Shown here one piece after another: positions 1 through 60,635 of a DNA stretch of 64,000 nt (position 1 is the first letter of the stretch; each line of letters begins with the position of its first letter). The translations under genes and the position numbers were made by a program. The DNA is from Emiliania huxleyi CCMP1516 (Eukaryota), in the NCBI RefSeq assembly GCF_000372725.1, contig NW_005201092.1, positions 532,564 through 596,563 of the forward strand, in the 5' to 3' direction. The notes under the pieces were generated by a model. The model was not told the DNA's origin and ran no database searches. It saw only the letters and a program-made list of their open reading frames with translations.

Positions 1-3000
1 CGACCGTCCGGTGAGCTGGTCGCCGACAATGTACGAGTTGTGGCTGGTCGCGACCCAGTAGTGCGACAGCGGCTGCGAGAGGTCCGCGGTGTACGCGTTT
101 GGCGGCACCGCACGGTTCTCCGGCGAGAGGAGGAGCATCGCGAACCGCATGTACGACAGCCGGGAGCTGCCAGCGTCGCCGCACGCGCGGGCGTAGGCCG
201 CGCGCGCTGCCGGCACGTCGGGTTCCTCCTGCACTGCGGCTTGGAAGGCGAGCCACCCTCGGAGGTCCATCTCGCCGTCGGCGTTGGCGTAGTCGTTGAA
301 GAGCTGGCGAATCTCGTCCTGGGCAGTGTAGCCGGACAGCAGGACCTCCGCCACCTGCAGCATGTTCAGCGAGCCGCCAGCGGGCGTGAGCCACTCCGGC
401 AGCGGCGTCGCCTGGGCCAACCGCACCGCCCTTGCCTCCAGCTGCCGAGCATTGGCATCGGCGCCGACAGAGTCGCGCGCGCTCTTGACGACTGCGGCGA
501 GGGAGCAGTTCGAGCGGTTGGCGGCCGCAGGCAGGCTGTGCAGGGGCAGCACGCCCGCCGCGTTGCCGCCGATGGAGACGGACGCGGCCATGCGCGAGAG
601 CAGCCAAAGGTGTGACGCCGCTCCGGGCGAGCGCAAAGCCACCTCCGCCATCAGGGCCTGCAGCGCCGCCGCCCACGCCGCCGCCTCCTCGTCCGAGCTC
701 GTGACGCGCAGCACGCGCAGCTCGCCCTGGAGATTGCGATGCCGCACGCGCACAGTGCCCAGCCCGCCGCCGCGCGCCTCGACGGCAACCTCCGTCACGA
801 GCGGGACGAAGACGCGGTCCCTCGACGACCAGGACCAGCCGAGCGCAAGGGAGGGCGCGTCGAGGACGACGAAGCTCGGCACGGACGGCTCGTAGAGGTC
901 GTCGATCACGACTCGCCCCGCGAGGCCGGCAACGAGCGGGTGGAGGTTTGTGGGCGTCTCGGGCGGCATGCCGCGGCGGCGATGCCACAGCGCAAAGGGC
1001 CACCTCGTCGCGAGCTGGACGAGGTTGCGGCGCGGCAGGACGGCGGCGCCGGCGCGTCGCGCGAAGGCGCAGAGCGAGGCCGCCTTGCGCGCGAGAACGC
1101 GCCAGACAAGGGTCTGCGGCGAGATGGAGTGGGCGCGGGCCAGCCGGATGATGCGTGGGGAGTGGTCGTGCAGGTAGAGCTGCAGCGCGGCGAGGAGGAG
1201 GTGGAGGAGGAGGAGCCCCATCCCGAAGAAGGCAAAGGTGGAGAAGAGCTCCGCAGGGGAGAGGCCAAAGCTGTCCTCGCACACCTCCGCGTCCTGCTCG
1301 CACATCTTGAGCAGCAGCACGGTGAGGTAGACGACGACGAGCGAAAGGTACGCCATCGTCGCGAGCCAGTTGTCCTCGCTGCGGCGGAAGGGCTGCGTCG
1401 CCATCTGCAGCGAGAGGAAGAGGATCGAGACGAGCAGCGCGACGAGCGCGCGCGCCTCCTCCAGCCTCTCGTCGATGAGCAGCACGAAGCACGTGAGCGT
1501 CAGCTTGCGCAGCACCTCTAGCACCTCCCACAAGTACGCCTCGGGCCTGTAGTCGGCCCAGAGGAAGCGCGTCGAAGCGACCCACTTTGTCGTCCGGCCG
1601 GCGCGGATCGCGCGCTGGTGAGCGAGAAGCAAGACCAGGTAGAGCACCGGCACGCCGACGGGCCAAAGCGGGGAGAGTCCGAACGCCCAGTTCTTGAGCC
1701 GCTGGTGCGCCGGCGTGCTGCACTCCAGCGAGTAGTCCGCCTGCAGGAAGGACCGCGTCTCGCCCGTGGCGTCGTCGTAGACGAATGCGTCGCACAGAAA
1801 CGAGGAGAAGATGAGCGCCGAGACGGCGGGCAGAAGGAGGAAGGTGGCGTAGAGAACCAGCGGGAGCACTCTGCGAAGCGCAGAGACGAGAAAGACGGAG
1901 GCGCCGGTTCCGCGGAGCTGCCCCTTTGCGTGGGCGACGGCGGCGTTGCGGATGGTCCACGCCACTGCGGCGAGACCGATGACGCCCCACGGAGCGACCG
2001 CCGCCCCGATGAGCTGGTCCAGCTTTGAGCCGTAGCAGGCGGACGGCACCGCCAGGTCCATCACCCGCGCCGCGGCGGTCAGGGCGGACATCACGTTTTC
2101 CATGAAGCTGCCGACGAGCGTCTCCGGGACGCTGAGCGCGTAGACGGAGGGGATGGCGGCCAGGCACTGGTAGAGAGCGACGAAGATCTTTAGCTTCGAC
2201 CCCGTGCCCGCGCGCTTGAGAAGCGCGGCGAGAGAGCGGCCGGCTCGCAAGACCCTCCTCGCCGCCTTGTGCCGAGGCTCCCAGCTGCTCCGGAGGAGGG
2301 CGATCGCCGCACAAAGCAGCCCCGACGCGATCACAGCCGCGGCGGCGAGCGAGGCGGGGCGCCATGGCGGAGGGCAGTCGACGCACTCCCTGCTGGCGAC
2401 GCTAAAGTACTGTGCGACCGCGAGGCCTTCGCAAGAGCCGGAGCGCTCCCCACCCCGCCTGCAGGAGCACACCTTGCACCGGGGCCCCTCGTGGCGGTAA
2501 TCGCAGAGGTCCGAGGCGGCACCCTCGTCATCGCCCTCCACCTCGAGCCGGCGCCTGGAGCTCGCGCTGCCTTTCGTCGAGCCCCTGCACGCGTCGGAGT
2601 CGTAGCAGCGGTAGAGCTCCGTCGTGCGGCTCGAGCCGCGCCAAAAGTCCCTCGAGACGCCCATCGTCGCCACCGTCGTGTTGCGCGAGCACTCGGCGTT
2701 CGGCGGGCAATCCTTGCAGTACTTGGTCGGGTTTTTGAAGATGTCGGCAGCGCTCTCGACCAGGTAGTAGCCCTCTTTGCAGATCGAGCAGGTGACGTCG
2801 CCGCGCCCACTACTCAAGGGATAGGGGCAGAGGGTGCATTCCCCCTGGCCAGGGTTGGCGGCGTACGTGCCTGCAGTACACTCGTCGCACGATACGCTGC
2901 CGGCGCCAGAAGTGGTGCCGGGCTTACAGAGCTCGCACTGGGAGAGGCCAGGCGTGGCGGCGAAAGCGCCCGGCGAGCACTCCGCCGGCGGCGCAGCCCC

Positions 3001-6000
3001 ACCGCTGCACGACGATCCCGCCGGGCAGTCGAAACAGTCGGGATCGCCGTCATCGTCGGTGGCATTGGCGTATGTGCCCAGCTCGCACGCCGCGGGCAGC
3101 TCGAGCGACGCGCCAAGAGGACACAGGCTGCCAGGCTTACAGCGGAGGCACTCGGCTGCGCCGCTCGCCTTCTGGTAGAATCCGGCGGAGCATCGTTCGC
3201 ACTTGGAGAGGCCAGGCGTGGCGGCGAAAGCGCCCGGCGAGCACTCCGCCGGCGGCGCAGCCCCACCGCTGCACGACGATCCCGCCGGGCAGTCGAAGCA
3301 GTCGGGATCGCCGTCATCGTCGGTGGCATTGGCGTATGTGCCCGGCTCGCACGCTGCGGGCAGCTCGAGCGACGCGCCAAGAGGACACAGGCTGCCAGGC
3401 TTACAGCGGAGGCACTCGGCTGCGCCGCTCGCCTTCTGGTAGAATCCGGCGGAGCATCGTTCGCACTTGGAGAGGCCAGGCGTGGCGGCGAAATGGCCGG
3501 GCTCACAGGGCGCGCACGCGTCGCCGCTCTCCGCTCCCCGCGTCGCGCTCGCGGTGCCGGCGGGGCAGAGCTCGCAAGCGGCGCTCGAGTTGGAGCCGTT
3601 GTTCGGGTTGAAGCTGCCTGCGGGACAGGGCTCCCAGACCATGCTCGTGGCGGCGCCCACTTCATTGCAGGAGCCGCCCTTTGGACACGGCTCGCAAGAC
3701 GACTGCCCGACAGCCGCCGAGTAGCTCCCCGGAGGACAGGCGAGGCAGTCCGCCTGGCCTGTGAGGGGCTGATACTGGCCCGGAGCGCACGGCAGACAAG
3801 CATCCTCGCTCGCCGCGCCGCGCGCCGGCATCATCGTGCCGCGGGGGCACGGCGTCGGGTCGGCGGTGCCCTCGACGCAGTAGCGGCCTTGAGGGCACTG
3901 CCCGCTGCAGGTGGGGCTGCTCAGGTCGGTCTCGTTCCCGAAGAAGCCGGCGGCGCACTCCTTCAAGCAGCCGGTGAAGTCGCCGGAGAAGGCGTCCTCC
4001 CCGTCGCCGCTTGTCGGCGGCATGTACTGCCCGCGCTCGCAGGTCCAGCTGATGGGCGCGTTCGAGCTGACGGTCGTCTCGCCGACGTTGCCCTCGAAGG
4101 CGGTGCCGACGATGAGGGCGGTCTCGCTGTTCGTGTCCTGGGAGGCGTACTCGATCGCAGCGCCCTTGTCAGCCTCGTTGCGCTCAAAGGCGGAGTCCCT
4201 GATGACGAGGCTCTGCGACAGCTCGGCAAATAGCCCGCCGCCGCTATTTCCCGCTTTGCAGCCCGAGACGGTCACCGCCTGGAGGCCGAGGCGGCTGCCC
4301 TGCTTGGAGGCGATGCCGCCGCCGTCCCCGCCGGCGAAGGAGTTGCTGATGGTGACGCCGCGAAGGACCGCCTCGCCGCCCTCAATCACAAGGGAGCCGC
4401 CGTCGCCGTCCGCGCGGCCGTTGATGAGGGTGATGTCGCCCTCCAGCGTCAGGCGGCAGCCGCCCGAGACGAGGAAGTGGCGCGACATGCCCTCGGCGTT
4501 CATGATGGCGGTCGAGCCTGGGCTGCTCTGGATCGAGACTTCGATCGGGGTGCGGCACGACAGCTCGCTACCGCCGAGAAGGAAGAGTGCGTCGCGCTGC
4601 AGCTGCAGCGACACGTTAGCGCTGGGAGCGCGGTTATCCCCGCCGCCACACACGCAACAATGGACCTTGGCCCTGCCCTCGCCATTGAAGTCAGTGCTGC
4701 CGTGCTTGTTGCACCGGTTGTAGGATGAGTACTTGTCACAACCGTCGCCCTCGCCATCAAACCAAGCTATTCCGGACGATGCACCAGGGCGATCCATGCA
4801 GAGGCCCTCGGCGTCTTTGAGCCGCTTGCGCAGCTGGTCGACGGTCTCGACGAGCTGGGTCGCGGGAGTGAGCGGCGGGAGCGGCGGCGGAGATGGCGGT
4901 GATGGAGGGGACGGTGGCAGCGAGGGCGGCGAGGGCGACGATGGCGGCGAGGGCGGCGAGGGCGGCGATGGCGGCGGCCAGCACACCTGCGATGCGCAAA
5001 ACGCTGGGGGTCAGCTGCATAAGAGGGAGGCTAGGGCGATTGGCGAGCTACACCTTCCAGGGGGGCTTGGGCTTCTCGCGGAAGGAGAACCACTTGATGG
5101 TGGCACCCGCAACCACAATCCCTGTCAGAGAAGTGCCATCTCGAGCCATGATCCCTGAAAGGTCCGGATGGTTCGAGCAGTACTCCTTGCCGTTCACCTT
5201 GAAATAGTCTTTCGCGGGGCCGCACTCTGGAGGCTTCTCTTTGCCCCAGCCGCCAGTCCCATTCAAACCGCCTTCGACAACCATCAGTGGGTGGCCTGGG
5301 ACATTGACAATGCTGCACGTGGGGTCGCGAGGACCCTTGCCCGCAAGAGACCGACGGCCGGGGCCATCGGAACCTGCGCCGTCACCCCCCTTGCCGCCGC
5401 CGCCCTCGCCTGCGCCCCCCTCGCCGCCGCCGCCGAGCCCGCCGCCGCCCTCGAAGGCCGGGTAGTTTGGCGAGGTGGCGCACGCGCCGCCGTCGGTGAG
5501 CGGGCACGGGCCGTCAGCCTGGACGCTCAGGCCAGGCAGGAGCGGCGGGGATGACGGCGGTGACTGCGGGGGTGGTGGCGGCGGCGGTGGCGACCGGGGT
5601 GGCAGAGGCGGCGGCATCTGCGGCGGCGCGTTGGCCCAGCAGATCTTCCAGCCGGCCGCGTACGTCGCATAGTCCGAGCTCCAGGTGATCTTGCCATCCG
5701 ACGGCACGATCCCAGTCGGGCCAGAGGTGCCGCAGTACCTCACGCCGTTGACGAAAAGATAGTCGAAGGGGCAGTCATCTGTCGGGTCGCCGTTCCCGTC
5801 GAAGTCCCAGTAAGGTTCATCGTCTCCCTGCACGTCGAAGGCGAGGGAGACCAGCGGGTTGGGCGGCACATTGGTGAACTCGCACCACTCATCAGGGCCG
5901 TACTTGTCCGGGTAGTTTGGCGAAGTAGCGCAGGCGCCGCCGTCGGTGAGCGGGCACGGGCCGTCAGCCTGGACGCTCAGGCCAGGCAGGAGCGGCGGGG

Positions 6001-8257
6001 ATGACGGCGGTGACGGCGAAGATGGCGGCAGCGGCGGCAGCGGCGGATGGCTAGGTGGCGGCGGCATCTGCGGAGGCGCGTTGGCCCAGCAGATCTTCCA
6101 GCCGGCCCCGAACTCAAACTCGTCCGAGACCCAGGTGATCTTGCCATCCGACGGCACGATCCCAGTCGGGCCAGAGGTGCCGCAGTACCTCACGCCGTTG
6201 ACGAAGAGATAGTCGAAGGGGCAGTCGTCTGTCGGGTCGACGTTGCCGTCGAAGTCCCAGTAAGGGCCATAGTCTCCCTGCACATCGAAGGCGAGGGAGA
6301 CCAGCGGGTTGGGCGGCACATTGATGAACTCGCACCACTCATCAGGGCCGTACTTGTCCGGGTAGTTTGGCGAGGTGGCGCAGGCGCCGCCGTCGGTGAG
6401 CGGGCACGGGCCGTCGACCTGGACGCTCAGGCCAGGCAGGAGCGGCGGGGATGACGGCGGTGACGGCGGGGATGGCGGCGCGGGTGGCGGCGGCGGTTGG
6501 CTAGGAGGCGGCGGCATCTGCGGCGGCGCGTTGGCCCAGCAGATCTTCCAGCCGGCCGCGGACACTTCATCGTCCGAGACCCAGGTGATGTTGCCATCCG
6601 ACGGCACGATCCCAGTCGGGCCAGAGGTGCCGCAGTACCTCACGCCGTTGACGAAAAGGTAGTCGGGGCAGTCATCTGTGGGGTCGCCGTTCCCGTCGTA
6701 GTCGTAGTAAAGGTAATAGTCTCCCTGCACGTCGAAGGCGAGGGAGACCAGCGGGTTGGGCGGCACATTGGTGAACTCGCACCGCTCCTCAGGGCCGTAC
6801 TCACCGTCCGGGTAGTTTGGCGAGGTGGCGCAGGCGCCGCCGTCGGTGAGCGGGCACGGGCCGTCGACCTGGACGCTCAGGCCAGGCAGAAGCGGCGGGG
6901 ATGACGGGGAAGGCAAAGCGCCACCACAACACATAACGGCCTCGTCGCAGGAGCACCAAGAAGGCTGGAAAATGCAGTCTCCACCGCAATCACAGTAGTT
7001 TGAAGCCGGCTGACCAGGGCACAGCACCGCAGCCACCCCTTGTAGGCGTGCGGCGGAGCAAACCAGCAGGAAGACCACACCGTGCCGCGAGCCCATTCCC
7101 GTTCGGGATGCGAAAGAGCGGAGCCGCGACTCCATAGTAGAGGAGTTGCCGTTACGTCGAGCATGGCTGCGGCCCTCCACCCTCCCATTCTTGATCTGCT
7201 GCTGTCGCAACAGCCCGATGCATGCCGCGAGCAGCGCCAGCACGGCCGCACAAGAGTAGAGAAAGAGCAGCGAGGCCGCCTCGATCTCTGAGTGGGCCGT
7301 GGCGGTCGTGAAGCTCTCCTCGGGTAAGGGGTCGCCGATTTGGGTCGCGCCGGAAGTCTCGTCAAAGGAGGCGAGCTCGGCGTAGATGAAGGAGGCGCAG
7401 CGTGGCCGCGAGCCGGCGAGGTCACTTGAAATGGAGAGGGGATCGGTCGACTCGGTCGTCTTCGAGTCGGAAACAGGTCGCACGAAACGGGTCGTCTTCG
7501 AGATCTTCCAGCCGGCCGCGTTCGTCGAATAGTCCGAGACCCAGGTGATCTTGCCATCCGATGGAACGATCCCAGTCGGGCCAGAGGTGCCGCAGTACTT
7601 CACGCCGTTGACGATGAGGTAGTCGTAGGAGCAGTCGGCCTGAGGCTCCACGTCGAAGGCGAGGGAGACCAACAGGTTGGGCGGCACATTGGTGAACTCG
7701 CACCGCTTCTCAAGGCCGTACTTGTCCGGGTAGTGTGGCGAAGTAGCGCAGGCGCCGCCGTCGGTGAGCGGGCACGGGCCGTCGACCTGGACGCTCAGGC
7801 CAGGCAGATGTGGCGGGGATGGCGGCGGAGGGGGCGACCGCGGTGGATCGGAATTGTCGAGCCGACGTCGACGTCGTGCCGCGTCGCCCCGATGGTGGAG
7901 GCATGCCTCCGGAAGAACAAGCGTGCCAACCGGCGCCCACGTGCTGCTTTCGCCCACGTTTTGCAGGCAATCGCAGCCGGACTGGCAGAAGCACCAGCAT
8001 CCCTCGGAATCGCAATGGTGCTCGACGTTCGTCGTGGTGGGGTGAGCTCCTTCGCAAGAGTCAACGCAGCGCTGTCTGGAGCAGTCCGAGGCAGGTCCAC
8101 GGCACACAAAAGCGTCGAGATCGCTCGTACACCGACCCGCTGAAGGGAAGCTCTCCCAGGTTGAGCGCGTCGCCTGAGAGAAAACCGCTCCCGGCGGCGT
8201 CGCCGCGCCTCCATTGCCGGGCAGGCCGAAGCAGAAGATCAGAGCAGGCGGCAGCAT
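1..8257 (-). CDS. Giant receptor-like protein: signal peptide, five CUB-like repeats, parallel beta-helix-like region, Cys-rich (GCC2/GCC3 / ephrin-receptor-like) repeats, multi-pass TM module, then PH-like, EF-hand-like and PI-phospholipase C X domain; truncated at window start
   Basis: Exon 8257-5054 (ORF 5048..8284), GT-AG intron 5053-4987 (WK|VCW), then an exon from 4986 to base 1 in one frame; the ORF track lists no terminated ORF in that frame. My translation gives CPAG/CEPG repeats, KLKIFVALYQ, FLQADYSLEC, WEVLEVLRKL, QPFRRSEDNWL, then LRVTSSDEEAAAWAAALQAL, EIRQLFNDYANADGEMDLRGWLAFQAAVQEE and DLSQPLSHYWVATSHNSYIVGDQLTGRS. Confidence 0.85.
2940..3490 (-). repeat. In-frame tandem duplication (about 264 bp unit) of Cys-rich repeat modules
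   Basis: Near-identical blocks begin at about 2940, 3204 and 3468 (ggagaggccaggcgtggcggcgaaa), encoding KCERCSAGFYQKASGAAECLRCKPG... Confidence 0.9.
5460..7810 (-). repeat. Coding tandem repeats of CUB-like domains with Pro/Ser linkers (about 430-470 bp unit)
   Basis: Repeated LPGLSVQVDGPCPLTDGGACATSPNYP...YCGTSGPTGIVPSDGKITW...GWKICW in ORF 5048..8284. Confidence 0.9.
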
Positions 8258-8878
8258 CGAGATGCAAGAGATCTGAGCTGCCAAACTCGGCCGCCGACAC
8301 AGCTGTACTTTTTTTTTAAGGTCCTCCGGCCAGTTTCGGGGGGCAAACCCCGCCCGGCCCCTAGAACCCCAGGTAAGGCCCAGGTGTGGCCTAGGGCATC
8401 AGAAGGGACCAAGAGGAGTCCAGTCTGAGCAATAGAGCCCATGTCTTTGCCCCCGAAGGTCGCGTTCAAATGCCCGGACGGACGTCACAGTGGTGTCCGG
8501 CCGGCGCGATCACCGAGCTGTGACGCTCAGGGAAGCCTGATGAGGTACTGGTTTCTTTGCCCAGGGCTGGCCTACGGCCCGTGCTGGATCAGCTGAGCAA
8601 GGTTTGGGGAGAATCCTATAGTAGGATCTTCAGATATTTTGACGGATGATCGAAATCACCCCGTTTTTGCCCTCTCGCAAAGGTCCAAAGTCGCCACCTC
8701 TCGCAAAGGTCCAAAGTCGATGAGTTCTCCGGTGGACCATCAATATTTACCGAGATATGGCCGCTCAAAGTCTGAGACCTGTCACAAAAGTGATGCACCT
8801 ATTGGGAGCGAGCTTAGGGGACCCCTAGGGTTCTGAGGGCCGGATTTTTTAAGACCTTTTAAGAAACGAGGAGGTTTG

Positions 8879-11402: not shown

Positions 11403-12446
11403 TTAGCGACCACCCCCCAGCGGGAGCGACGAGAGGATGTGCTCTCCTCCCTGCAGCACCGCCTCCATCAAGGCCGGCGGCGGCAGAGGCGAGGGCGGCG
11501 GCGAGGGCGGCGGCGGGGGCGCCGGTGCGCAGCCGGCGGTCGGCTTCAGCCGCCAGCTCTTTGCCCAGTGCGCCTCGCTCTGGCTGCACCTGTACGAGTC
11601 GACCCACTCCCGGTACCGCGAGACTCGGGTGTAGACGCCGGGCGTGAGCGGCTCGGCGCAGCCAAAGCCCCAGGAGGTGACTCCGACGAGCACGGGGACG
11701 CCGTCGTCGCCGACGCGGAAGAGCGGCCCGCCCGAGTCGCCCGCACACGCGTCCACTCCGCCGAGCAGGTTGCCGGCGCACATCTCGGGCCCGTCCAGGT
11801 ACGGGCAGAGCCCAAGGAAGCCAAAGATGGGGCCGCAGAGCAGGGCGTTGCACTCGCTCGAGCCAAAGGTCCTGACCTCGGCCTCGTGCAGCACGCCGGG
11901 GGTGATGGTGGTGCCGAACAGTGGGTAGTACGACGGGTCGTAGAGTGCGCCCCATCCGGCGACGGTCAGCTCATTGCCGGGCCCGCTGTTCTCGCCGTGG
12001 TCCAGCGTCGCAAAGGCGATCTGGTCGGAGCACTTGACGGCGTCGCTCAGGACCAGCAGCGCGAGATCGTTCTGGACGGTGTCTGGGTCGTACTCTGGGT
12101 GCGGCACCAGCTGAGCCACAGCCACGGTGTCGCCGCACTCCGGATTGTCCACCTCTGGGTCGAGATATTCGGGCTGGTCGGGCCCCATTGGCGTCGAAAG
12201 GGTGTGACGCGAGGACGAGACCTGGTAGACTGCGGGATTGCTGCTCTCGGTGATGCAGTGGGCCGCAGTGAGGACCAGGTTGGGCGACACGAGGCTGCCG
12301 CCGCAGAAGAACTCGCCGTCCTTCAATAGCGCAACGACAAACGGATAGCGGTTGAAGGAGGTCTCAACGCCGCCGACGACGCGCGGCCGAGGCTCCTCGA
12401 AGAGCCGCAGCGGGAGAGCGGTCGCAGCCGTCGCCAGGGAGAGCAT
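11403..12446 (-). CDS. Secreted trypsin-like serine protease (peptidase S1)
   Basis: Signal-like N-terminus, R|VVGG activation site, CGGSL, LTAAHC, DLALL, GDSGGP, SWGFGC, PGVYTRVS; Pro-rich tail. Confidence 0.95.
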   Translation of the reverse strand: MLSLATAATALPLRLFEEPRPRVVGGVETSFNRYPFVVALLKDGEFFCGGSLVSPNLVLTAAHCITESSNPAVYQVSSSRHTLSTPMGPDQPEYLDPEVDNPECGDTVAVAQLVPHPEYDPDTVQNDLALLVLSDAVKCSDQIAFATLDHGENSGPGNELTVAGWGALYDPSYYPLFGTTITPGVLHEAEVRTFGSSECNALLCGPIFGFLGLCPYLDGPEMCAGNLLGGVDACAGDSGGPLFRVGDDGVPVLVGVTSWGFGCAEPLTPGVYTRVSRYREWVDSYRCSQSEAHWAKSWRLKPTAGCAPAPPPPPSPPPSPLPPPALMEAVLQGGEHILSSLPLGGGR

Positions 12447-12546
12447 GAGTGATCAGGGGCGGTGGTTAGGAGCTCAACGAGTGAGCAGTGCAGGCAAGCT
12501 CCGACGAGCGCGACTTGGCTGCCAAGGATGTCGGTGTCCCGCCTCA

Positions 12547-16550: not shown

Positions 16551-17660
16551 TCTAATTCTGTTTCTTCTTTCTCAAAACAGGCACCGAGGACTCAGACCAT
16601 TTCGTCCGTCGAGGCACTTCTCCGAACAACGCTTTGTCGAGATCCGGAGATCTACCTCTGAAAAACCTCTCGACTCGTGCCCCCCAAAAGCGTAAAAAAC
16701 ATCTTGGAGAAGCGAATTGCGACCGTCCCTCCTCGCGCCGTGAGAGCACCAGCTTCGTCGGGCTTTTAGCCAGCGCTGGCGCTCCCCGACGATCTTTCTA
16801 CCACTTCGCCGCGTCACGAGCTTCTGGCAGCGCCTCTCTCTTCCTGCGCACGGCACGAGAGGCCGACGTGCACCTAAACACCTTCACGGATGCGTGGCGT
16901 CGCCGTCGGTGCTCTTTTGTCTCGCCGGATAGGCGTCGGTCTTTGGTCGTGCCGCACGGCGCGTACGTTGGAGAGCTCACATGCATGGCCTGTGTGTAGG
17001 CAGTCTACGCTCGGCGGGTGCGCGCTGCCTCGGCCGCTGCGATGTGCGTCTCGCCGCTGCCGCGCAGCCTTTGGCCAGCTCTTGTATTGTCGCGGCTTTG
17101 GCGAGGGCCGCGCTCGCGTGCCGCTGTCGTCGCGTGACCGAGTAGGACAGGCTGCTCTGACTGGTCGCGGAGAGCGGCCCGGCGCGAACCGGGGGCTGTG
17201 CATTCGGGAAGGAGGCGGCAGGCGCGGCGGCCGCCGGGCCGCCCGCACGGTGGGTGCGAGACTCGAACAAGAGGGCTGGCGGGGAGACGCGGCCCGCGCC
17301 TCCGTGCGGTGGCTCAGTGCTTCCGTGCCGGTGGATTGTGTGTGCTGCCACGCCACTGACTGGCCGCTTCCGTCCCAACGAATTCTCTGGGTGTGACCGA
17401 GTGTGGCCGAGTTCGTGTGCTGACTGTGTGCGCAACCGGACGACCATTTGATTCCCACCTGCACTCAACCACACTCTGCTGCACTCCTTCACTGTAACAG
17501 AGTTTGACCGATTGAGGCCGAGTGTGCTGGAGGGTGCCATCGCGTGGCAGAGCCCGCCAGAGGGCGACCGCGTCGTAAAAATGTGTAGAGTTCAACTCTC
17601 GTGAACCTCTAACGGAGCTGAGAGGAAGAGCTCCACTCTCCGCCCAATCGTCCGCAGCAG

Positions 17661-20600
17661 ATGGCTTCAGCCGCCGCCGCCGAGGAGGAGGCGACTCTCG
17701 AGGCGCTCGCGTACACGCTCATCCGCATCACGTCTCTGCTGCTGCTCGGCTACGTCTCCGCACGGCACCTCCTGCCACCCGGCGCGCAGAGCGGCATCAG
17801 CGCCTTTGTCGGCACCCTCGCGCTTCCTGCGCTGCTCTTCTCCTCCATCGCCATTCTGCAGTGGGATGCCGTCGACTGGACCATCGTGGCCGCAGTCATG
17901 CTCGCCAAGGCACTGACCCTCGCCTGCTGCGTCGGCGTCGGCGTGCTGATCACCCCTCGCCCCGCAAACGCCGGGGCCGAGATCCTCAACGGCGCCGTGC
18001 TTGCTCTCCTCGCCGTCTCTTCGGACGACCTCGGGCTCGGTCTCCCCGTGATGAGCGCGCTCTACGGCCGCGGCTCGCGCTACGTGAGCCAGCTGTTCGT
18101 CATCGTGCCGCTGCACAACCTGCTCGTCAACCCCGCCCTGCTCTCGCTCCTCGCGCTCGGCTGTGCACAGCGCTCCTCGGCCGGAGGAGGCCGCGCCGAG
18201 CTCGGCCCCATCCTGCGGGGCGTGCTGCGCGGGCTCGCCGGCAACCCGCTCGTCCTCGCCGTCCTCGCCGGCCTCGCCACCAACCTCGCAGGCGACACCA
18301 CGCCCAACCTCCCACTCCACCTCGCCCTCGACCGCTCCACCACCCACTCCACCTCGGTTTCCACCTCCCGCGAGGAGAGGCGCGACCCGAGATGCGAGGA
18401 GCCTGCTCGGAACATTCTCGGAACCTTCTCGGAGCTTTCTGACAGGCGTGGCGAGGAGGGGGCACGCGCCGACGGCGCTGCCGAGGGCGCTGGCGGAGGT
18501 CTCGTCTGCGCTTGGCGCGGCTCCACCTCCGCCACCCAGAGTGGTTCCCGCCCGCCGAGTAGAGAATAACAAGTGTGTGTGTCGTTTCTCTGGTCGTCAG
18601 GCGTCTACCCGCCCCGCCGCCAAGTGGTTTCGCCTTGCGTGCGTGTGTGATCATTCCGCTCTCTTTGCTCAGGCGACGCCTACCCCGCCACGGTGCTCGT
18701 GCTCGCGGGCATGGCCTCGGTGGGCTCCTCCCGCCCGCTGGGCTTGCACAGCCTCACGCCCCTCCAGCCACCTGCCAGGGACCCGGCTGAGGACCCTCTC
18801 CCAAGGTTGGCTCCTCCGAGCCGCTGCTGTCGGCCCGCTCGCTCGCGACTCCGGCGCCCGCCCTCGTCGTCCAAGCCCGTCGCCGGCTGTGAACGCGGCG
18901 TCTCTTCACAGCCCATCGACTGTGAGCACAGGCGCTCGCCGTCCTGCTCAAGTGCGCCGTCTTCCCGCTGGCGACGCGCACGCTCGCCCTCGCCCTCGGC
19001 CCGCTCGTGTCCGGAGCCGCGACGCCGACGGCGACGACCCGCCTCGCCCGCTCGCCGAGGAGTGGCGCGGTCGGGCCACACACCCACAAACTCACCGGCT
19101 CTCCGTACCCCGATGGCTTCAGGAGACGCTCGACTTTGCCTTCCTCTACGGCACTCTCGCCACCTCCAACGTCGCGCTCGTCATCGCCTCCTGCTACGAG
19201 CTCGCGCCAAAGGCCCATATCTCCCCATATCTCCCCATATCTCCCCATATCTCCTGCTACGAGCTCGCGCCAAAGGCCCGCAGCCGTGCTGTTGTGATGT
19301 AGCTCTACCACCGCAGTGTCACTGCTACTCGCCCCGTCGCCGTGCTGCTCCTGTGCTTGGACGCATCACCATTCTCACGCGGCGGAGATTGCCTCTTGTG
19401 ACTTGCCTAAACCTCCGCCTGTCCCCGCGCGCAGACCGTCGGCCTCGTCGCCGCCACCCTCTCCCTCAGCAAGCTCGTCGGCTTCCCGCCCGCCCTCGCC
19501 TCCGCTGCCTGCCTGCGGCCCGCGCTTCCCTCACACCTCTAGCCGTGGGTGCAGGCTTCCCGCTCCTCCTCGTGTCCGCCGCCGTCTACCAGCTCTCCTC
19601 GCCCGCCAGCGCGATCGCCGTCTCCACCAACCTCGAGCGAGCGACGCAGTTCGCCTCACTCACCCTCCGGCCTCCTCCGACCCCGCGACCCTTCCCGGAC
19701 CCTTCTCCCCGAACTCTCTCCGTAGCGGCATCTCGCTCCTCTCCTGCGCCATGGTGCTCGCCGGCGGAACGCTGCAGGGCGCGTGGCGGCCACCTGCCCC
19801 CGCGGGCGTGCGCAGGCCAGGCGGCGCCGCGAGCCCAGCGGCCACGGTCGGTTCTCTTGTGCAGTTGCTCACTGCTGCTACTACAGGCAAGGCGGCGCTC
19901 CGAGCTCGACGGCGACGCTCCGGCGGGTGGGCGTGCTGGCGGTGCGCTGCAGCGCTGCTGGTCCACAGCGACGCTCAGTCTGCTGTGAACAGCGTCTCTC
20001 TTCATGCAGCCGCCGACTGCGGAACAGGCGCTGCAGCTCTGCTGGTCCACAGCGATGCTCTGCGTGAGCGCGGATCGCCTCCGCGCCGCCGCACCGGCCG
20101 AAGCGAAGGCCGTGGCTCCAGCTTCACTTCGGTACGGACTGGACTCGCATCCCGTACCGTCTCGAAAGAATGCGCGAGTAGGTGCTCTTCGCCCTCATCT
20201 CGAGTCTGCGGTGGGCCGTCGACTCCTTCCTCGTCGCGGTCGCCGTCGCGCCGCGCCTCAGTTGCCGGGCGCAGCTGCTGGCCGCCGCTGCCGTCGCAGC
20301 CGCCGCCACGGCGCCGGTGATCGCGGCGTGGCCTGCGGTGTGGCGCGAGGCTGCGCTGCCGCAGTGGGTGCTCAGCGAGGGACACGCGTCGGCGTGCGCT
20401 GTCGCCTACCTCGCCTTCGCCCTCGCCCTCGCCGCCGCGAGCTCGCGGTCGCTCGCGCGGGCTCGCGCCGTCTCCTCTGCGAGGCGGCGGGTGGCAGTCG
20501 CCATCCACGCGACCACTGCGCTGCGGGCGGCAGGCCGCCAGTACCAGCAGCAGGAGGACGAGCCGCAGCAGCAGCCCGCCGACGAGTCGCCGCGCCCGAA

Positions 20601-24153: not shown

Positions 24154-26260
24154 TCACGCGGCCGTCCGCATGCGCACCCTCCTCACGCCGAGGCTGACCA
24201 GCGCCTCGTCACACCTCTCCGCCTGCCTCTCCACCCCCCCCTCCGCCGTCTCTCGAGCGAGCGCCTGCAGCGCCGCAACGCCGCCGACCCGGTGCCACTG
24301 CTCAGCGCACGCAGACGAGGAGGTTGCGAGGGCGAGGAGGGCGTTGATGCTGTCTCTGCGCCAGCCATCATCCTCGGGCTGGTCCAGCCGCGAGAGGAGC
24401 AGCGAGAGGCAAGTGTCGTCGGCCGCGAGGTCGGGACAGCTGCTGGCCAGGTACACAAGGGCAATGGCAGCAGCGAGTTTGCAGTCGTCCGAGGCGCCTG
24501 CCTCCTGCGCGAGAGAGGAGAGGACCGCCACACCGCCAGCCTCGACGACACCCTCGTGCGTGGCGGGTGTTACCTCAATCATGTTGCCGAGCCGCCACCG
24601 CGGCACCACCCTTCTGCCTCTCAGTCCCATCGCGAGCCAGCGCGACGAGGACCTCGATGCCGCCGGCCGCTGCGATCGCCACGCTGTTCTCGTCGTTGTC
24701 AGAGAGGTTCCACAGCGCCCCCGCCGCACGCTCCTTCTGCCCCTCGTTCCCATCGCGAGCCAGCGCGACGAGGACCTCGATGCCGCCGGCCGCAACAATC
24801 GCCGCCTTGTTGTCGTCGTTGTCAGCGAGGCACCACAGCGCTCCTGCCGCACAATCCTTCTGCCCCTCGTTCCCATCGCGAGCCAGCGACACGAGGACTT
24901 CGATGCCGCCGGCCGCAGCAATCGCCACGCTGCTGTCGTCGTTCAGAGCGAGGTTCGCCAGCGCTCCCGCCGCATTCTCCTTCTGCGCCTCATTCCCGTC
25001 GCGAGCCAGCGACATTAAAACCTCGATGCCACCAGCCGCAACAATCGCCGCCTCGTTGTCGTCGTTGTCAGCGAGGTTCCTCAGCGCTCCTGCCGCATTC
25101 TGCTTCTGCGCCTCATTCCCGTCGCGAGCCAGCGACATTAAAACCTCGATGCCACCAGCCGCAACAATCGCCGCCTCGTTGTCGTCGTTGACAGCGAAGT
25201 TCCACAGCGCTCCTGCCGCACAATCCTTCTGCCCCTCAGTCCCGTGGCGAGCCAGCGCAATAAGCACCTCGATTCCGCCTGCAGCAGCGATCGCCACCTT
25301 GAGGTCGTCGTTGGTAGCGAGGTTCCACAGCGCCCCCGCCGCTTCCTCCTTCTGCCCCTCATTCCCGTCGCGAGCCAGCGACACGAAAACCTCGACGCCG
25401 CCGGCCGCAGCAATCGCCGCCTCGTTGTCGTCGATGTAAGCAAGGTTCGCCAGCGCCCCCACAGCGTTCTCCTTCTGCTCCTCATTGCCATCGCGAGCCA
25501 TAGCAACGAACAGCTCGACGCCGCCGGCCGCAACAATCGCCGCCTTGTTGTCGTCCTTGGCTGAGAGGTTCCACAGCGCCGCCGCGGCACCCTCCTTCTG
25601 CTCCTCATTCCCGTCGCGAGCCAGTGACACGAGGGCCTCGATCCCGCCGGCCGCAGCGATCGCCACCTTGAGGTCGTCGTTGACAGCGAGGTTCCACAGC
25701 GCCCGCACCGCATCCTCCTTCTGCGCCTCATTCCCATCCCGAGCCAGTGACACGAGGACCTCCACGCCGCCGGCCGCGGCTATCGCCACCCGGCTCTCAT
25801 CGTCGTCCCGGGCAAGCTCCTGGAGCGTTGCCGCGACGTCCGCCTTCTCGTCCTCGTCTCCAACCCGTAAGAGGGCGACGAGCGCGTCCATCCGCCTGCT
25901 GCTGGCCTCCTCTCCCGACAGCCGCTTGAGCTCTCCGAGCGCAGCGGCTTGCAGCTCCGAGGAGGCATCGCCAGCGGTCTCCACCAGCCGCGCGAAGGCA
26001 CCGCGCGGCGCGAAGATCAGGGACCACCGCTTGCACACGGCCGCGTGGCGCAGGCCCGTCTTCTCGAGCACGCACGGCGCAAGGTCCGGGTCCGCGAGAA
26101 CGTCGGTCGCGACGGCGGGCGGAGGGCTGTGGTGCGCGAGGAGCGCCTCGGCCCTCCTGTTTGCAGCGGGGCTGTCCCGCATCGCGCCGGCGGCGATCGC
26201 GATCAGGGCATCGGGCGGAAGAGCGGCGAGCCGCAGCTCGTAGCGGGCGCAGGCGAGCAT
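24154..26260 (-). CDS. F-box-like plus Armadillo repeat protein; frame break near 24600
   Basis: About 11 repeats of IAAAGGIEVLVSLARDGNEEQKENAAGALWNL (41 aa, 123 bp); N-terminal VLADPDLAPCVL...AAVCKRW; the C-terminal ARM-like segment continues in another frame to 24154. Confidence 0.85.
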
Positions 26261-26833
26261 TCGCGGCGAAAACTGTTTTTCCATCGATTTCTTGCGCATT
26301 GGCGCCCGGGCCGGCCACTCCTCCGCCGTCGCCACCGATGCAGTCCACAGGTCGACGCGGTCGTGGCTGTCGCTGCAGGCCCAGCGCATGTCAGTCGCGC
26401 TGCAGCTCGCGGCGGCGGAAGAGATTGCGACCGAGCTCAGGCCTAGACTCCCCTGCGTCACTACGTGCCTCCCCGTCTTTGTAGCCTGGTGTTTGTGCCC
26501 CGTTTGTGCCGCGTCCCGTGCCCGGAATTCATTTTATAAAGCTCCTCCACCGTCGCGGGCGGAGGCGAGCATTTCCCGGTCCGGCGCGACGCGCGAGAAT
26601 TCGTTTTTCGCCTCAGTCATTTCCTCGATTTGTGCATTCATTTCTTGCACGATTTCTTCCCTTGCCCCATTTTTTCGTCTTCGTAGGCTTGTTCATTTAT
26701 GAAGAATTTTTCTCGAGGCCTCGACCGTGTCGCCTCGGCGTTGCTCGACGGTGTTGCCTCGACAACAACAACACCGGCTTGGCGCTTTCTCCCACATCAT
26801 CCCGTCGCAGCTGGCCGGAGTTGATCCCTACAC

Positions 26834-51471: not shown

Positions 51472-51571
51472 NNNNNNNNNNNNNNNNNNNNNNNNNNNNN
51501 NNNNNNNNNNNNNNNNNNNNNNNNNNNNNNNNNNNNNNNNNNNNNNNNNNNNNNNNNNNNNNNNNNNNNNN
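51472..51571. other. Assembly gap (100 N)
   Basis: Run of N. Confidence 1.
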
Positions 51572-55553: not shown

Positions 55554-58500
55554 ATGATGCCGCCGACGTCGCCAATCTCGCCGCCGTCGGCCGACCTCGT
55601 GCGGAGGCTCGGGAGAATCGATCAGTTCGGCCCGAAGAGACAGGCAAGCCTGCAGGAGGCGTTCAAAACGGAGGCTGAGCTTTGCAAAGCGACGGAGAAG
55701 GACCTGCGCTCAGTCGCCAAGATCGGGCCGGGGCTGGCAAAGGTGTTGTACGGCGTGATCGCGACGGGCGAGTTTCCGCCCTCAAAGTGGCGCGGCGAGG
55801 CTCGCGTCGCGATGTGGAACACGCGCACGCAAAAGAAGGTGTCGACGCGGAGCCTTCCGACTGAGGAGGGCGCGGAGGCGTGGCTCGAGAAGCGCCCGCA
55901 CTGCGAGCGTTATACGGGCCAGGACATGACGCTGAGGGGGCCGAACCTCGTGTCCGACGCGAGCGTGATGGGCGGGGCGGACTACCTCATGCACTGCGGC
56001 CAGGCGGGCTCTGCCGAGGAGCTCGCTCGGCTGGACCAGACGTGTGCTGCCATCCCGCCCCTTCCTTGCCCACCCGCAGTTCCGCGCTGAGTGTTGCGTC
56101 CCGCCCACAGGCTCGCAGAGCACAAACTCGCGCGCCGCGTCGTCGCCGTCGCTGCGAGCGGCGGCTCGAGCTCAGCGCCTGCAGCGCCGCCTGGATCCAG
56201 CCTGTTCGACGCCGTCTCGCAGGCCGCGAGGCGGCTCGAGCAAGAGATCTCGCAGAACGAGATTCAGAGCGCCGCCATATCGGCGGTGTCGCGGCGCTGC
56301 GTCGACCCGCTCACCGAGCGCGCGCAGCGCAAGTCGCCGAGCCGGGTGGCGATCATCGATGACGACGACGACGACGACGACGACCCGCCGACGCCGACGG
56401 CGCTCTTGGCGGCGGCGAGCGTCCTGCTCTCGCGCCCGATCTGGGTCTTCACCGGCGCCGCGTCGGAGAAGAACGTCCTGCTCGTCAACCCGAAGCACAT
56501 GCCTCGCACCGTCGAGCCGCTCCGCCTCGCCGAGTTTGGGGGCTCGTACCACGCGCTGGTGCCGGACGACGAGGCGGCGGCAGCGGCGGAGCCGGCCGAG
56601 GCCGTCGTGTCGTCCGACCCGGAGGTGCTCGCCGACGCGGAGGAAGCGCTTCTCGCCGCCGACGAGACGCAGCTCCCTGACCTTAAGGACGACCTCGAGA
56701 CGAGCCTCAAGGACACGGTCACCACCATCAGCGGTACGTCCGCCCCACGACCACCCCGCCACCGCTCACACGCCGCTGCCAGCCTCGACCGCCCCCCCTA
56801 GCCACCGCGACCGACCCCCCTGGCCACCGCGGGCGCGCCGCACCCACCCACCCACCCATCCACCGCCCCGCCCAGTGCAGAGACGGAGAGGTGGAGCAAG
56901 GAGAACATCCCGGAGAAGCTCGACCTCTCTTCCTACTCCGAGCCGCTCGAAGGCTACCGGCGCCGCCTCGTGGACGGCGCAGGCCTCGACGCGGTGTGCC
57001 TCGGCGACAACGGCGTCGGCAAGAGCACGCTCGTCGACGTCGCCATCTACAACACGCTCGAGGACGACAACGCGTACAAGCCGCGCCTCGACCAGGGCTA
57101 CGTGCTCGAGGCGGTCAACAAGTTGTTCTCCACCGCCGAGGCCGACCCGCCGACTCTCGCGCAGCTCATCGCCGACAAGACATTGCTGTCTTCCAAGGGC
57201 ACCGAGGTCGTGGTTCTCGAACACGACGACGCGGCGGCGGCAGAGGCGGGCGCCGACATCGCGCAGCTGGAGAACGACTTCCGCTCGTACGCCGAGAGCC
57301 CCGGGCACATGCGGCCGAGCTTCAAGAAGGCGCACTTCCTGCTGCCGACGGGCCGTGACGACCACGCCACCACCGCGATCCACACGTTTGTGCGCTACGG
57401 CGGCGGCGTGCACATGCTCGTGAGCAAGTACACCGTTGCCGAGCTGAAGCAGCAGGCGTTCTTGTTCGTGGCGATCCGGCGCGAGCTCGGCGACGACGAC
57501 CCCGAGGACATCGAGAACGAGAAGCAGAAGGACGAGCTCAAGGAGGCGTGGCACACGTTCCTCAAGGTGACGCAGGGCCAGACAACCGATCTGCCAGAGC
57601 TGTCGGACGAGCTGCCGGCGGCCGACGAGCTGCCCGAAAGCTGGAGCGAGGTCAAGGTCTGCGACGCGGTGCTCAAGCTGACGAGCTCGCCCCACACGCT
57701 GTACTGCGGCGAGGGCCGGTCTCTGCACCACGACCGCAAGCAGATCCACGAGGTGCTCGAGACGATGAACGATGATGAGCGGCTCGAGCGGGTGGTCGCG
57801 AAGACGGTTGAGCTCTTCGTCCCCGCGGCGGTCCTCGAGGGCGGCTGTGGCTTCATCGACCTGCCCGGGAACAACGACGCCGACCCAGGCAGCATGCGCC
57901 AGATCCGGGAGGGCATCGAACGAGCGGGCGCCGTCTTCGTCGTGCTCAAGCGGGACATCGCGGGCGACAACAACACGGTCAAGCTCCTGAAGGACAGCGG
58001 CCTGCTGGCCCGCGCGCTGCATGCCGACGAGCCGCTCAAGCTCGTCTTCCTCTTCAACCGCGAGCTCAGCCAGCAGCTGAAGATCTCGGACATCGACACG
58101 GAGGCGGAGGCCGAGACGCGACGGGCGCTCGAGGAGAACACGCGCAAGAAGTTCAAGAAGATGCTGAGCGACGTGAACAGGTCCGCTCAGAATCGGCAGG
58201 AGCCAGCGCGGACCGAGGAGGAGATCGCGCAGATCGTGGCGAGCACGCCGATGCGCGCCATCTACCCGATGTCGCACACAGCATGCAAGCTGCATACCGA
58301 GTTCGTCGAGAAGAACGCGGACAACAAGGCACTAGCCGAGGGCGTCTTCTCCCACTCCAACATGTACTGGTTCTCGGGCGTGCTCGACGCGCTCAACCGC
58401 GACTACTACGTCCGAGAGCTCGGCCGCCTCGTGACGAAGACGATCCCCGAACTGCTGCAGAAGCTTCAGAGCGGCCTCGACGATGCGGCTCACACGGACG

Positions 58501-60635
58501 CGGGCCTGCCGTCGAAGCTCGTGGAGATGGCGCAGTCCTGGCTCAAGGGCGCGAACCGGCTCACGGGACCGTTTGGGACTCTTGTGGAAGACTTGAGGGA
58601 AAAGCTGCGCAAGCTCGACACCACGGGCCGCATTGACACCGCCCTCTTCCCTCGCCGCACCCCCGTTGGCTTCGAGCTCACGGAGCAGTCGCCCCCCTTG
58701 TCGCCATCCCCGCCACCCTTTGGCGAAGGGTACCGCAGCAAGATCGAAAATCTCGTCGCTAACTTTGTCGAGGAGGGGGAGGCGATCGCGGACTTCCTCG
58801 CAAGGGCGGAGGAGCGGTCGTCGCAGTCGTGGCCGACGCTAAAGAACAGCCTAAGGCACTACTCGACGGCGATGATGGCGATCGACCCGAAGCACAACGG
58901 GCTCCTCAAGGGCAAAGAGATCCTGCCGGTTGTGTTCGGCTCGCGCAGCCTTGTGCGGGTCGACTTCTCGCAGCTCGCTAATGACGAGCCCGAGTCGATC
59001 TTGCACGACTTCCTGCAGGACTTCAAGGAGCTCGTGATCGACTTGCTCGTCTCCTCCGTCGACCAGGCGCTGCAGGTGAACGGCGTCGACACGCAAGATG
59101 TCGTCGTCGAGACCCTCAAGGAGAGCTTCATGACCTGCGACGTCCACGCGCTGCTCGACGAGCGTTTCTCGATCAAGTGCTTCTTCATGCCTAAGCGTTC
59201 GCCGCCCGTCGACCTGCAGAACGGCGACGTTGCGGCGTATTTCAACAAGCTCGCGGCGAAAGAGCGCGTCACGGCGCTGCGCGACAAGGTGCTCAAGAAG
59301 GCGACGGATCAATCAAGCCTCGGCGAGGTGCACGCCCTCATCGAGAACAACCTGGAGACGACGCGCGAGGCGTGGAGGCACCAGCTCGCAACGACGCTGT
59401 CCAAGTTCACGGTCACGCAGTTCGGCTTGCTGATGGCCGACCTGACTGAGGGCCGCAAGCGCATGGGCGGCGGCCTGATCAAGCAGTTGCTCCGCGCCTT
59501 CCTCCAGCACATCGTGCAGACGGACCAGATGAAGTCGAATGCGGCGCTGCGGCGCGAACTCTCGCGCTACATCAACGACTTCCGCCGCCAAAACGCGGCG
59601 CTGCACTCGCTCTGGACGCGGCTCGAGAAGCAGTCCGATCCCGAGGAGCTCGGCAGGGCGGCGGCGCGGCACGTTGACATGCGGCGGCTGCGCGAGGCTG
59701 TCGTGCGCCAGGCCGGGAGTGGCGCCAACCTTGGCAGTCCGGCGCAGAAGATGCCGGCGCTCTCGCTCGTGCGCGAGGACGCGCCGAAGTGGTGGCATCC
59801 TTCCGAGAACTTCTTGCGCGGCGACATGTCCGTCGCCCAGCTCAACGCGCTGAGCGCCGAGATGCTCTCCAAGTACCGGCTCGGCGCGTGCCAGATGAAG
59901 ACGGAGGGGTACGCCTCACTCTTCCACGCCGTCGCGAAGCTCGCGTGGGGTCAGAAGTCGCTGAAGAGCCGCCTCCTGACCTTGAACGACGCGGCGGCGC
60001 AGCTGCGAGCCGTCTGCGCGGCCCAGGTCCTGAATTACTGCGCCAAGAAGGAAGAGCGCAACGCAAAGGTCGCCGGCTTCCTGCACGAGGCCCCGGCGTC
60101 GGACTGGAAGGAGCAGTACATCGCGCTCATCAAGGGCAACTACCCTGGTGACCTCTTCTGCCTGTGGCACCTCGCGTGCCACTACAAGCTCGACTTCTGC
60201 ATCTGGCGCCCGAGCGCCGAGAAGCTGCCGCCGATCCTTGTGACGCAGCGCGACAAGGAGTTGCCGACGGCGGCGCACCATCTCATCGTCACCGCCGACT
60301 CGGACAAGGCTGACGGCACGCCGATTGACCTCTCGACCATCACCCCGTCCGAGTACGAGGCGCAGTGGTGGTTCTTTGCCGACGACCGCAAGGTGCGCTT
60401 CAGCGACGCCAAGGGAAAGGTCCACCTCCTCGCCACGACCGACGACGAGGCCGAGGCGTCGACCAAGGCCCGCCTCGCTGTCCCGAGATCGACCGACGGC
60501 GTGGAGTGGACGTCTCCGTCGAGCTACCGCATCACGGCGGATGTGCCCCCCCCGCGCCCGACCGGAGCCGAGATCCACCACCGACCGGAGCAGCCAACGG
60601 AGGCGGAGAGGGCTTGGAAGAAGGCGCGCCGCTGA
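55554..60635 (+). CDS. Multidomain dynamin-like (Dynamin_N/NUGGC-like) GTPase with N-terminal HhH and BRK-like motifs and two OTU-like domains
   Basis: G1 GDNGVGKST, LLPTG...TT, G3 DLPG, G4-like FLFNRE, long helical stalk; DLRSVAKIGPGLA (HhH); RVAMWNTRTQKKVS...PTEEGAEAWLEKRPHCERY (BRK-like); SSLFDAVSQA...LAEFGGSYHALV and YASLFHAVA...GDLFCLWHLA (OTU-like). Confidence 0.7.

Follow-up and report, generated by a model that had tools for sequence, protein, structure and literature searches.

Phosphoinositide phospholipases C (PI-PLCs) are taught as soluble enzymes that receptors recruit. In a 64,000-nucleotide stretch of the genome of Emiliania huxleyi CCMP1516 (contig NW_005201092.1, positions 532,564 to 596,563; hereafter, the window), the minus strand of the left end carries a gene that joins such an enzyme to a multi-pass membrane domain and a large ectodomain. 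An earlier interpretation made from the letters of the window (the sequence-only reading) had proposed this one-chain receptor-PLC architecture, which the present analysis supports: the membrane domain and the PLC are joined in one frame and on one transcript contig, and the active-site residues are intact. The receptor-PLC gene is judged real, expressed and conserved. The architecture had also been thought undescribed, and consistently, no published description of a receptor-PLC fusion was found within a literature coverage from which most subscription journals and the supplements of haptophyte genome papers are absent; the available text of PMC12716839, PMC13466386, PMC9694693 and PMC3083381 makes no mention of it.

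The gene and its transcripts

In the direction of translation, the gene comprises the following features.

7097..8257 (-): upstream in-frame stretch from ATG 8257, within the open frame 8398-5048 (hydrophobic segments, ATGs, CUB match)
7022..7096 (-): candidate signal-peptide-like start at ATG 7096, judged by eye (hydrophobic segment at 7078, KD 2.08)
5054..7021 (-): main part of exon 1, made up of three tandem units of 450 nt (CUB plus Pro-rich sequence) and a divergent fourth (Pfam CUB, E 2.6e-11, 3 stretches)
4987..5053 (-): intron 1, 67 nt, GT..AG, phase 0 (absent from an X1 contig of depth 5.1)
4057..4617 (-): approximate extent of a region resembling a right-handed beta-helix (sub-threshold Pfam Beta_helix match at residues 196-283, E 7e-4)
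2767..3954 (-): ephrin-receptor-like Cys-rich repeats (Pfam PF07699, Ephrin_rec_like, six matches, 1e-24)
2362..2724 (-): Cys-rich EGF-like juxtamembrane region (sequence; Cys pattern before helix 1 as in relatives; CRMP likeness by eye)
1177..2349 (-): nine-helix membrane domain, CRMP-like, predicted N-out/C-in (AlphaFold2 (AF2) model, loop charge in relatives, motif)
970..1176 (-): conserved, basic juxtamembrane helices that may couple helix 9 to the PH domain (70% consensus, 29 rows; helices in the AF2 model)
637..969 (-): predicted PH-fold domain (model residues 482-592; VIA Z 12.1)
127..621 (-): EF-hand-like helical region (AF2 model; aligns to the N-terminal halves of PLCs)
1..81 (-): first part of the PI-PLC X box, including the first catalytic His-Asn (Pfam PI-PLC-X, residues 1637-1662, 9e-6)

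As noticed in the sequence-only reading, a single minus-strand frame runs from 4986 to 1 with zero stops and translates into 1662 residues, its stop-to-stop extent beginning at 5010. The G+C content of third codon positions (GC3) is 0.77-0.94 along this frame and exceeds that of first and second positions in 17 of 17 blocks, as in a real high-GC gene. The DNA itself is 65% GC, and a shadow frame that overlaps the gene at 2-2401 (-) stays open for 800 codons, so that openness of a frame alone is little proof here. A near-identical database model that extends beyond the window edge, P0006, begins in the shadow frame and then switches to the true one. An independent model, P0027 (1647 residues), runs from the beta-helix through the X box in one frame.

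Position 4986 is the first base of an exon, preceded by AG, and the gene begins further upstream. A contig of run X1 joins 5050-5371 to 3862-4982 and omits 67 nt, corresponding to the intron 5053-4987, which connects the frame in phase with the upstream open frame 8398-5048 and its CUB repeats. Of the CUB/Cys-rich sensor proposed earlier, both parts are present; the CUB domains are located at 5050-7840, beyond the intron, and not within 4986-1. A start at ATG 7096 would give a signal-like peptide and about 2870 residues in total, and a start at ATG 8257 would give 3255 residues with two extra hydrophobic segments; coverage of run X1 is zero at 6889-7175 and does not discriminate between them. 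The stretch 7097-8257, which holds a Cys-rich piece, one CUB-like copy and a hydrophobic helix near 7270, may be the genuine N-terminus or may belong to a small gene of its own in that frame.

Beyond the window edge, the gene was read through a degenerate X-box motif scan of metagenome contigs, which returned 58 loci. One of these contigs, L026, matches window 1-378 at 99.5% identity and continues for a further 1964 nt, on which the gene extends by 525 codons in the order remaining X box, 116-nt GT..AG intron, 69-residue linker, Y box, C2-like region, short coiled tail and stop. A spliced 4206-nt contig of X1 has no gap within window 2517-1, and on L026 it continues beyond the stop (273) as far as position 195. 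It thus reaches from before helix 1 to beyond the stop and places both the membrane domain and the enzyme on a single spliced contig; neither a stop nor a transcript break, either of which would have spoken against the proposed fusion, separates them. The 116-nt intron is skipped in contigs of runs X1 and X7, whereas X5 shows a 117-nt joint at the same intron, with one letter between, and X15 reads through it; X1, X5 and X7 come from studies P1, P2 and P4. Two raw-read RNA runs from other organisms matched with partial reads only. An apparent truncation after the X box in P0006, P0027 and P0031 was dismissed as read-through into this intron.

Two further observations concern the locus. A 264-nt tandem duplication (98%) lies at 2933-3460 in the Cys-rich ectodomain and is single-copy in P0027, a near-identical model, so that the repeat number differs between alleles or close copies. 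High-copy repeats flank the gene on both sides, with a depth of ~6000-7000 in X15 at window 8324-8600 and at L026 1-158.

Domains of the encoded protein

The three motifs quoted in the sequence-only reading were all found where it had placed them, and the Y box that it expected downstream is present on L026 (E 1e-17); the X box scores E 2e-40 on P0006. In the region after the Y box, the Pfam C2 profile gave zero matches. Searched with phmmer against 23 solved PLC sequences, a family member gave E-values of 4e-45 to 6e-32. In rat PLC-delta1, Lys438 is an active-site residue. The catalytic and Ca2+-binding residues given for that enzyme in the available text of PMC11174929 are His311, Asn312, Glu341, Asp343, His356, Glu390, Lys440, Ser522, Arg549 and Tyr551. 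Equivalents of all listed residues were found by motif in the gene as read on L026, and six of these positions, besides the His-Asn pair and the Y-box Arg used for selection, are invariant in 54 of the 54 preselected family sequences (39 loci and 15 proteins; 44 clusters at 90%). By these domain and residue tests, the receptor-PLC is a member of the PI-PLCs, and enzymatic activity is likely. It resembles eukaryotic delta-type PI-PLCs (PH-EF-X-Y-C2) in domain order, with a weakly matching C2-like region in last place, and in X and Y boxes and catalytic residues, and differs from them in that the enzyme is joined to a nine-helix domain and a large ectodomain.

PLC-delta has a basic PH loop, and the X-Y linkers of PLC-beta and PLC-delta are acidic and autoinhibitory. 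Here, by contrast, the first PH loop is acidic, and the X-Y linker is short (69 residues) and neutral, while the family median is ~140 residues, mostly net basic. The PH-like segment of the sequence-only reading corresponds to a predicted PH fold at 969-637, for which the best VIA match is the PH domain of USP37 (Z 12.1, rmsd 2.4, 96 aligned); its first two strands are acidic, not basic (mean 1.7 K/R and 3.2 D/E, 33 rows). An EF-hand-like segment had been placed at about 220-320; such a region is predicted, and it is wider, at about 621-127. The Pfam EF-hand_like profile matches weakly, in 3 of 19 relatives. Taken jointly, the PH and EF regions align to PLC gamma1, epsilon and beta2 in VIA (Z 9.6-10.9, rmsd ~10), and the leading Foldseek rows are PLCs without exception, at E 2e-3 or weaker. 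Upstream of the PH fold, the juxtamembrane helices are strongly basic (mean 7.9 K/R against 0.8 D/E, 29 rows).

The sequence-only reading had separated one transmembrane (TM) helix from a multi-TM module. The membrane segments are there, and the separation is not: they belong to one predicted nine-helix domain at 2349-1177, whose AF2 model, built alone from 37 rows, reaches a pLDDT of 85.6 and a pTM of 0.81. In 17-20 relatives, the loops after helices 1, 3, 5, 7 and 9 hold on average 8.4, 5.6, 5.4, 2.3 and 6.9 K/R, and those after helices 2, 4, 6 and 8 hold 1.8, 3.1, 0.2 and 1.9, with more acid than base; the conserved cysteines sit in the even-numbered loops. Because the odd loops are basic and the even loops acidic, and the Cys-rich part lies outside, the C-terminus with the enzyme is predicted to be cytosolic (N-out/C-in), in line with the earlier expectation that the PLC part is not extracellular.

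No solved structure matched the membrane domain above background in VIA or Foldseek, which shows neither novelty nor lack of kinship: the best VIA row is HRD1 (Z 7.5, rmsd 5.2, 186 aligned), and the best Foldseek E-value is 0.06. Identity as a seven-helix G-protein-coupled receptor (GPCR) was dropped, given the nine predicted helices; GPCRs reach no better than E 0.6 in Foldseek, with TM-scores of at most 0.23, and are absent from the 50 VIA rows. The TRP-like profile PF06011 scores 10-11 bits on this protein, below its gathering score of 28.5. Of the 46 proteins collected, near-duplicates among them, 33 carry the motif FL-x3-[FY]-x6-WE-x5-RK, and in 7 of the 13 non-matches the region itself is missing.

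Relatives, comparable systems and mode of action

The same fusion, sought in haptophyte relatives, occurs in five full models of Prymnesium parvum on contigs of 1.3-5.4 Mb. Three word-indexed protein searches returned 4, 21 and 19 matches: two of the 4 are fusions, 14 of the 21 combine TM-module sequence with X and Y (10 with the whole module), and one further fusion is among the 19. The fusions named in these searches are exclusively from P. parvum, where the models are labelled merely 'hypothetical' or 'Phosphoinositide phospholipase C'; UniRef members are labelled phospholipase C only. An MMETSP transcript encodes one truncated member. The TM module of the window is matched (BLASTP, E 4e-13 or lower) in 12 of the 58 motif-selected metagenome contigs, where the matched module and the PLC motif share a frame. 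Where at least 1450 nt are available upstream of the motif, 14 of 16 loci reach the membrane module, as counted with a hidden Markov model built partly from those same loci, and 2 begin within the juxtamembrane helices. L013 (958 nt upstream, no PH/EF match) and L018 (no juxtamembrane match) fit poorly. The TM-to-PLC join recurs in unrelated assemblies, in relatives that share 35% identity. The X-box motif gave 0 matches in viral contigs.

The family keeps the membrane-to-enzyme join while its ectodomains swap. The nine-helix domain is retained at ~38% identity behind CUB, beta-helix, Cys-rich, Venus-flytrap or glycosyltransferase-15-like ectodomains; P0002, P0010, P0016 and P0040 carry one to three Venus-flytrap domains (ANF_receptor, E 5e-44 to 8e-144) ahead of TM and PLC, and the glycosyltransferase-15-like domain is N-terminal on a P. 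parvum receptor-PLC, P0017. Tails other than PLC also follow the module: TIR in P0042 and P0043, a kinase in P0044 and an unclassified tail in P0041; the green-algal Cymbomonas protein P0004 has the module without PLC. The nine-helix module with TIR, kinase or other tails would thus make up a wider receptor family. By eye, the tails of P0023 and P0024 are TIR-like, the latter with OmpA-like domains; nothing relevant was found in the literature on haptophyte TIR receptors. P0005, a PH-EF-X PLC that lacks the nine-helix module and has a single hydrophobic segment at its N-terminus, is possibly a different algal PLC type. In a tree of the membrane domain (28 rows), PLC-tailed members group at a support of only 90/80, with the non-PLC P0041 inside, and the X+Y tree holds two outgroups and no haptophyte soluble PLC; a single origin of the PLC fusion is not shown.

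By motif, the receptor-PLC resembles the CRMPs (cysteine repeat modular proteins) of Toxoplasma, Plasmodium and Tetrahymena, described in the available text of PMC9815656 and PMC9670195 as having ephrin-like repeats, EGF-like domains and nine helices in an N-out/C-in orientation, with experimental support for a cytosolic C-terminus of TgCRMPa (PMC9670195). CRMPs take part in triggering exocytosis, act as heterodimers and are stated to be no bona fide GPCRs (PMC9815656, PMC9670195). The receptor-PLC shares the ephrin-like Cys repeats, the beta-helix of some CRMPs, the EGF-like juxtamembrane part and the nine predicted helices. In the four CRMP cores visible in S2 Table of PMC9815656, a Cys-pair loop, W-x2-G-x-P and FL-x3-[FY]-x6-WE-x5-RK follow in the same order as here, and the spacing of the last motif is identical, both judged by eye. 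The receptor-PLC is probably related to the CRMPs and set apart by its catalytic tail; no such tail is reported on CRMPs in the available text of either source, and 'phospholipase' occurs 0 times in the main text of PMC9815656, as does 'haptophy', and 0 times in that of PMC9670195.

GPCR-bigrams (GPCR-PIPK, -INPP, -AC, -PDE and -TKL, in oomycetes, amoebae and haptophytes) likewise place a multi-pass domain and a C-terminal signalling enzyme on one chain, and GPCR-PIPKs occur in Emiliania and Chrysochromulina (PMC5784254, available text). By analogy, the receptor-PLC would work like a GPCR-bigram but is not one, having nine helices instead of seven and large modular ectodomains; the available parts of PMC6033456 and PMC5784254 list no PLC-type bigram ('GPCR-PLC', 0 occurrences in the latter). 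Fission-yeast Pkd2 also has nine predicted helices (bioRxiv 2022.08.11.503631, available text). Together with the fungal TRP-like proteins (PF06011), it shares with the receptor-PLC the N-out/C-in orientation and weak profile matches on helices 6-8; it differs in its Ig-like lipid-binding N-domain, disordered tail and lack of an enzyme, and PF06011 stays below cut-off. Receptor guanylyl cyclases and class C GPCRs combine a Venus-flytrap, a Cys-rich spacer, a membrane part and the output in one chain. The four Venus-flytrap members named above share this layout, with a different membrane domain and output enzyme.

Since ligand-binding ectodomains are swapped in front of the nine-helix domain and different enzymes behind it, the simplest reading is that it is a relay domain and that the protein works as a one-component receptor-PLC. 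We hold with moderate confidence that one spliced gene encodes the ectodomain, the predicted nine-helix domain and a PH-EF-X-Y-C2 PLC acting in this way. An outside cue would bind the ectodomain; the signal would pass via the nine-helix domain and the conserved basic helices beneath helix 9, which are the obvious candidate for a coupling piece; and the tethered PLC would be released onto phosphoinositides, yielding diacylglycerol and inositol phosphates. A permanently tethered PLC would require an off-switch different from membrane recruitment. The hard-wired step of the sequence-only reading, in which ligand binding to the ectodomain would control the enzyme, with inositol trisphosphate and Ca2+ as the result, is inferred, and so are catalysis, ligand control, Ca2+ output and any part played in regulated secretion or contact sensing.

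Several points weigh against this reading. The runs were called RNA by guess only, so that splicing carries the transcript argument; intron 1 is supported by one low-depth contig; no single contig spans from the CUB exon to the PLC; and the downstream half comes from L026, a 99.5%-identical allele, and not from this assembly. Of the leftward extension expected earlier, the rest of the X box and the Y box were recovered, and the C2-like region, in the right place, aligns only weakly to PLC C2 domains (domain i-E 5.4 and 540). The 54 family sequences had been preselected on the His-Asn motif and the Y-box Arg, after 19 of the 58 loci with no in-frame Y motif were excluded. The P. parvum models P0014, P0022 and P0041 lack part or all of the PLC. 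The predicted kinship with CRMPs is a motif order read by eye, with no profile or structure comparison. A relay mechanism cannot be borrowed, because the membrane domain has no clear solved relative, and the AF2 model of window 2412-1 (TM, PH and EF; 43 rows, pLDDT 76.8) has a pTM of 0.55, which leaves the contact between membrane domain and enzyme unfixed.

That absence of fixed interdomain contact would also suit a protein whose ectodomain and nine helices merely anchor or place the enzyme, at an adhesion site, a membrane patch or a secretory vesicle, while cytosolic Ca2+, G-proteins or phosphorylation switch the PLC. The first loop of the PH domain is not basic, and the membrane domain may substitute for PH targeting; moreover, the available text of a GPCR-bigram review leaves indirect models open for comparable fusions (PMC6033456). 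However, one helix would do for an anchor, yet nine helices and the juxtamembrane motif are conserved, and several members bear classical ligand-binding Venus-flytrap domains; we regard simple anchoring as unlikely, although it is the strongest rival. Alternatively, the nine-helix domain could be a Ca2+-permeable, possibly tension-gated channel of the Pkd2/fungal TRP-like type, with entering Ca2+ activating the attached PLC. The helix number of Pkd2, the stretch-activated Ca2+ permeability reported in the available text of PMC9727806, the retained Ca2+ ligands of the PLC and repeated PF06011 matches in this protein and 8 relatives (profile ~280-370 of 426, best E 8e-5) are consistent with a channel. 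These matches score 8-22 bits, with partial profile coverage, against the cut-off of 28.5, and CRMPs, nearer by motif, are not shown as channels in the available text of PMC9815656 and PMC9670195, which makes a channel quite improbable.

It is very improbable that the fusion is a precursor from which the PLC is cleaved as a soluble enzyme, or that the join arises from assembly or read-through. Long chance open frames do occur in high-GC DNA, as the 800-codon shadow frame shows, and the PLC is missing in P0014 and P0041; nevertheless, the GC3 bias, the splicing seen in contigs of three studies and the recurrence of the join in 35%-identical relatives exclude an artefact, and no cleavage motif was seen, though no search for one was made.

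If the one-component receptor-PLC reading holds, a receptor that carries the enzyme as its tail is wired differently from one that recruits a soluble PI-PLC, and a CRMP-type nine-helix domain, whose signalling mode is unknown in malaria and Toxoplasma parasites, gains a natural enzymatic read-out that makes the question testable. In Emiliania huxleyi, 19 X-domain genes are reported, coccolith production stops under a PLC inhibitor, and PI-PLC transcripts are up-regulated by Ca2+ in strain CCMP371 (PMC7563939, available text); 'transmembrane' occurs 0 times in the available main text. Receptor-PLCs are candidates for this calcification-linked PI-PLC activity. More tentatively, haptophytes might run a large undescribed receptor system in which a CRMP-type relay is combined with interchangeable inputs (CUB, beta-helix, Venus-flytrap, lectin-like) and equally varied outputs (PLC, TIR, kinase), and whose PLC branch, directly ligand-gated and bypassing G-proteins and kinases, may be what drives secretion that depends on Ca2+, for instance the release of scales or coccoliths.

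Other features of the window

A trypsin-like protease with a Pro-rich tail lies at 11406-12452 (-) (Pfam E 8e-46). Three neighbours are unrelated to the receptor-PLC: a membrane-transport protein (PF03547) at 17622-18566 (+), an armadillo-repeat protein at 24578-26533 (-) and a tRNA pseudouridine synthase at 62459-63553 (+). The scaffold has a 100-N gap at 51472-51571, and a 1277-codon open frame at 56802-60632 (+) combines strong GC3 bias with only a weak AAA_16 match (E 0.003).

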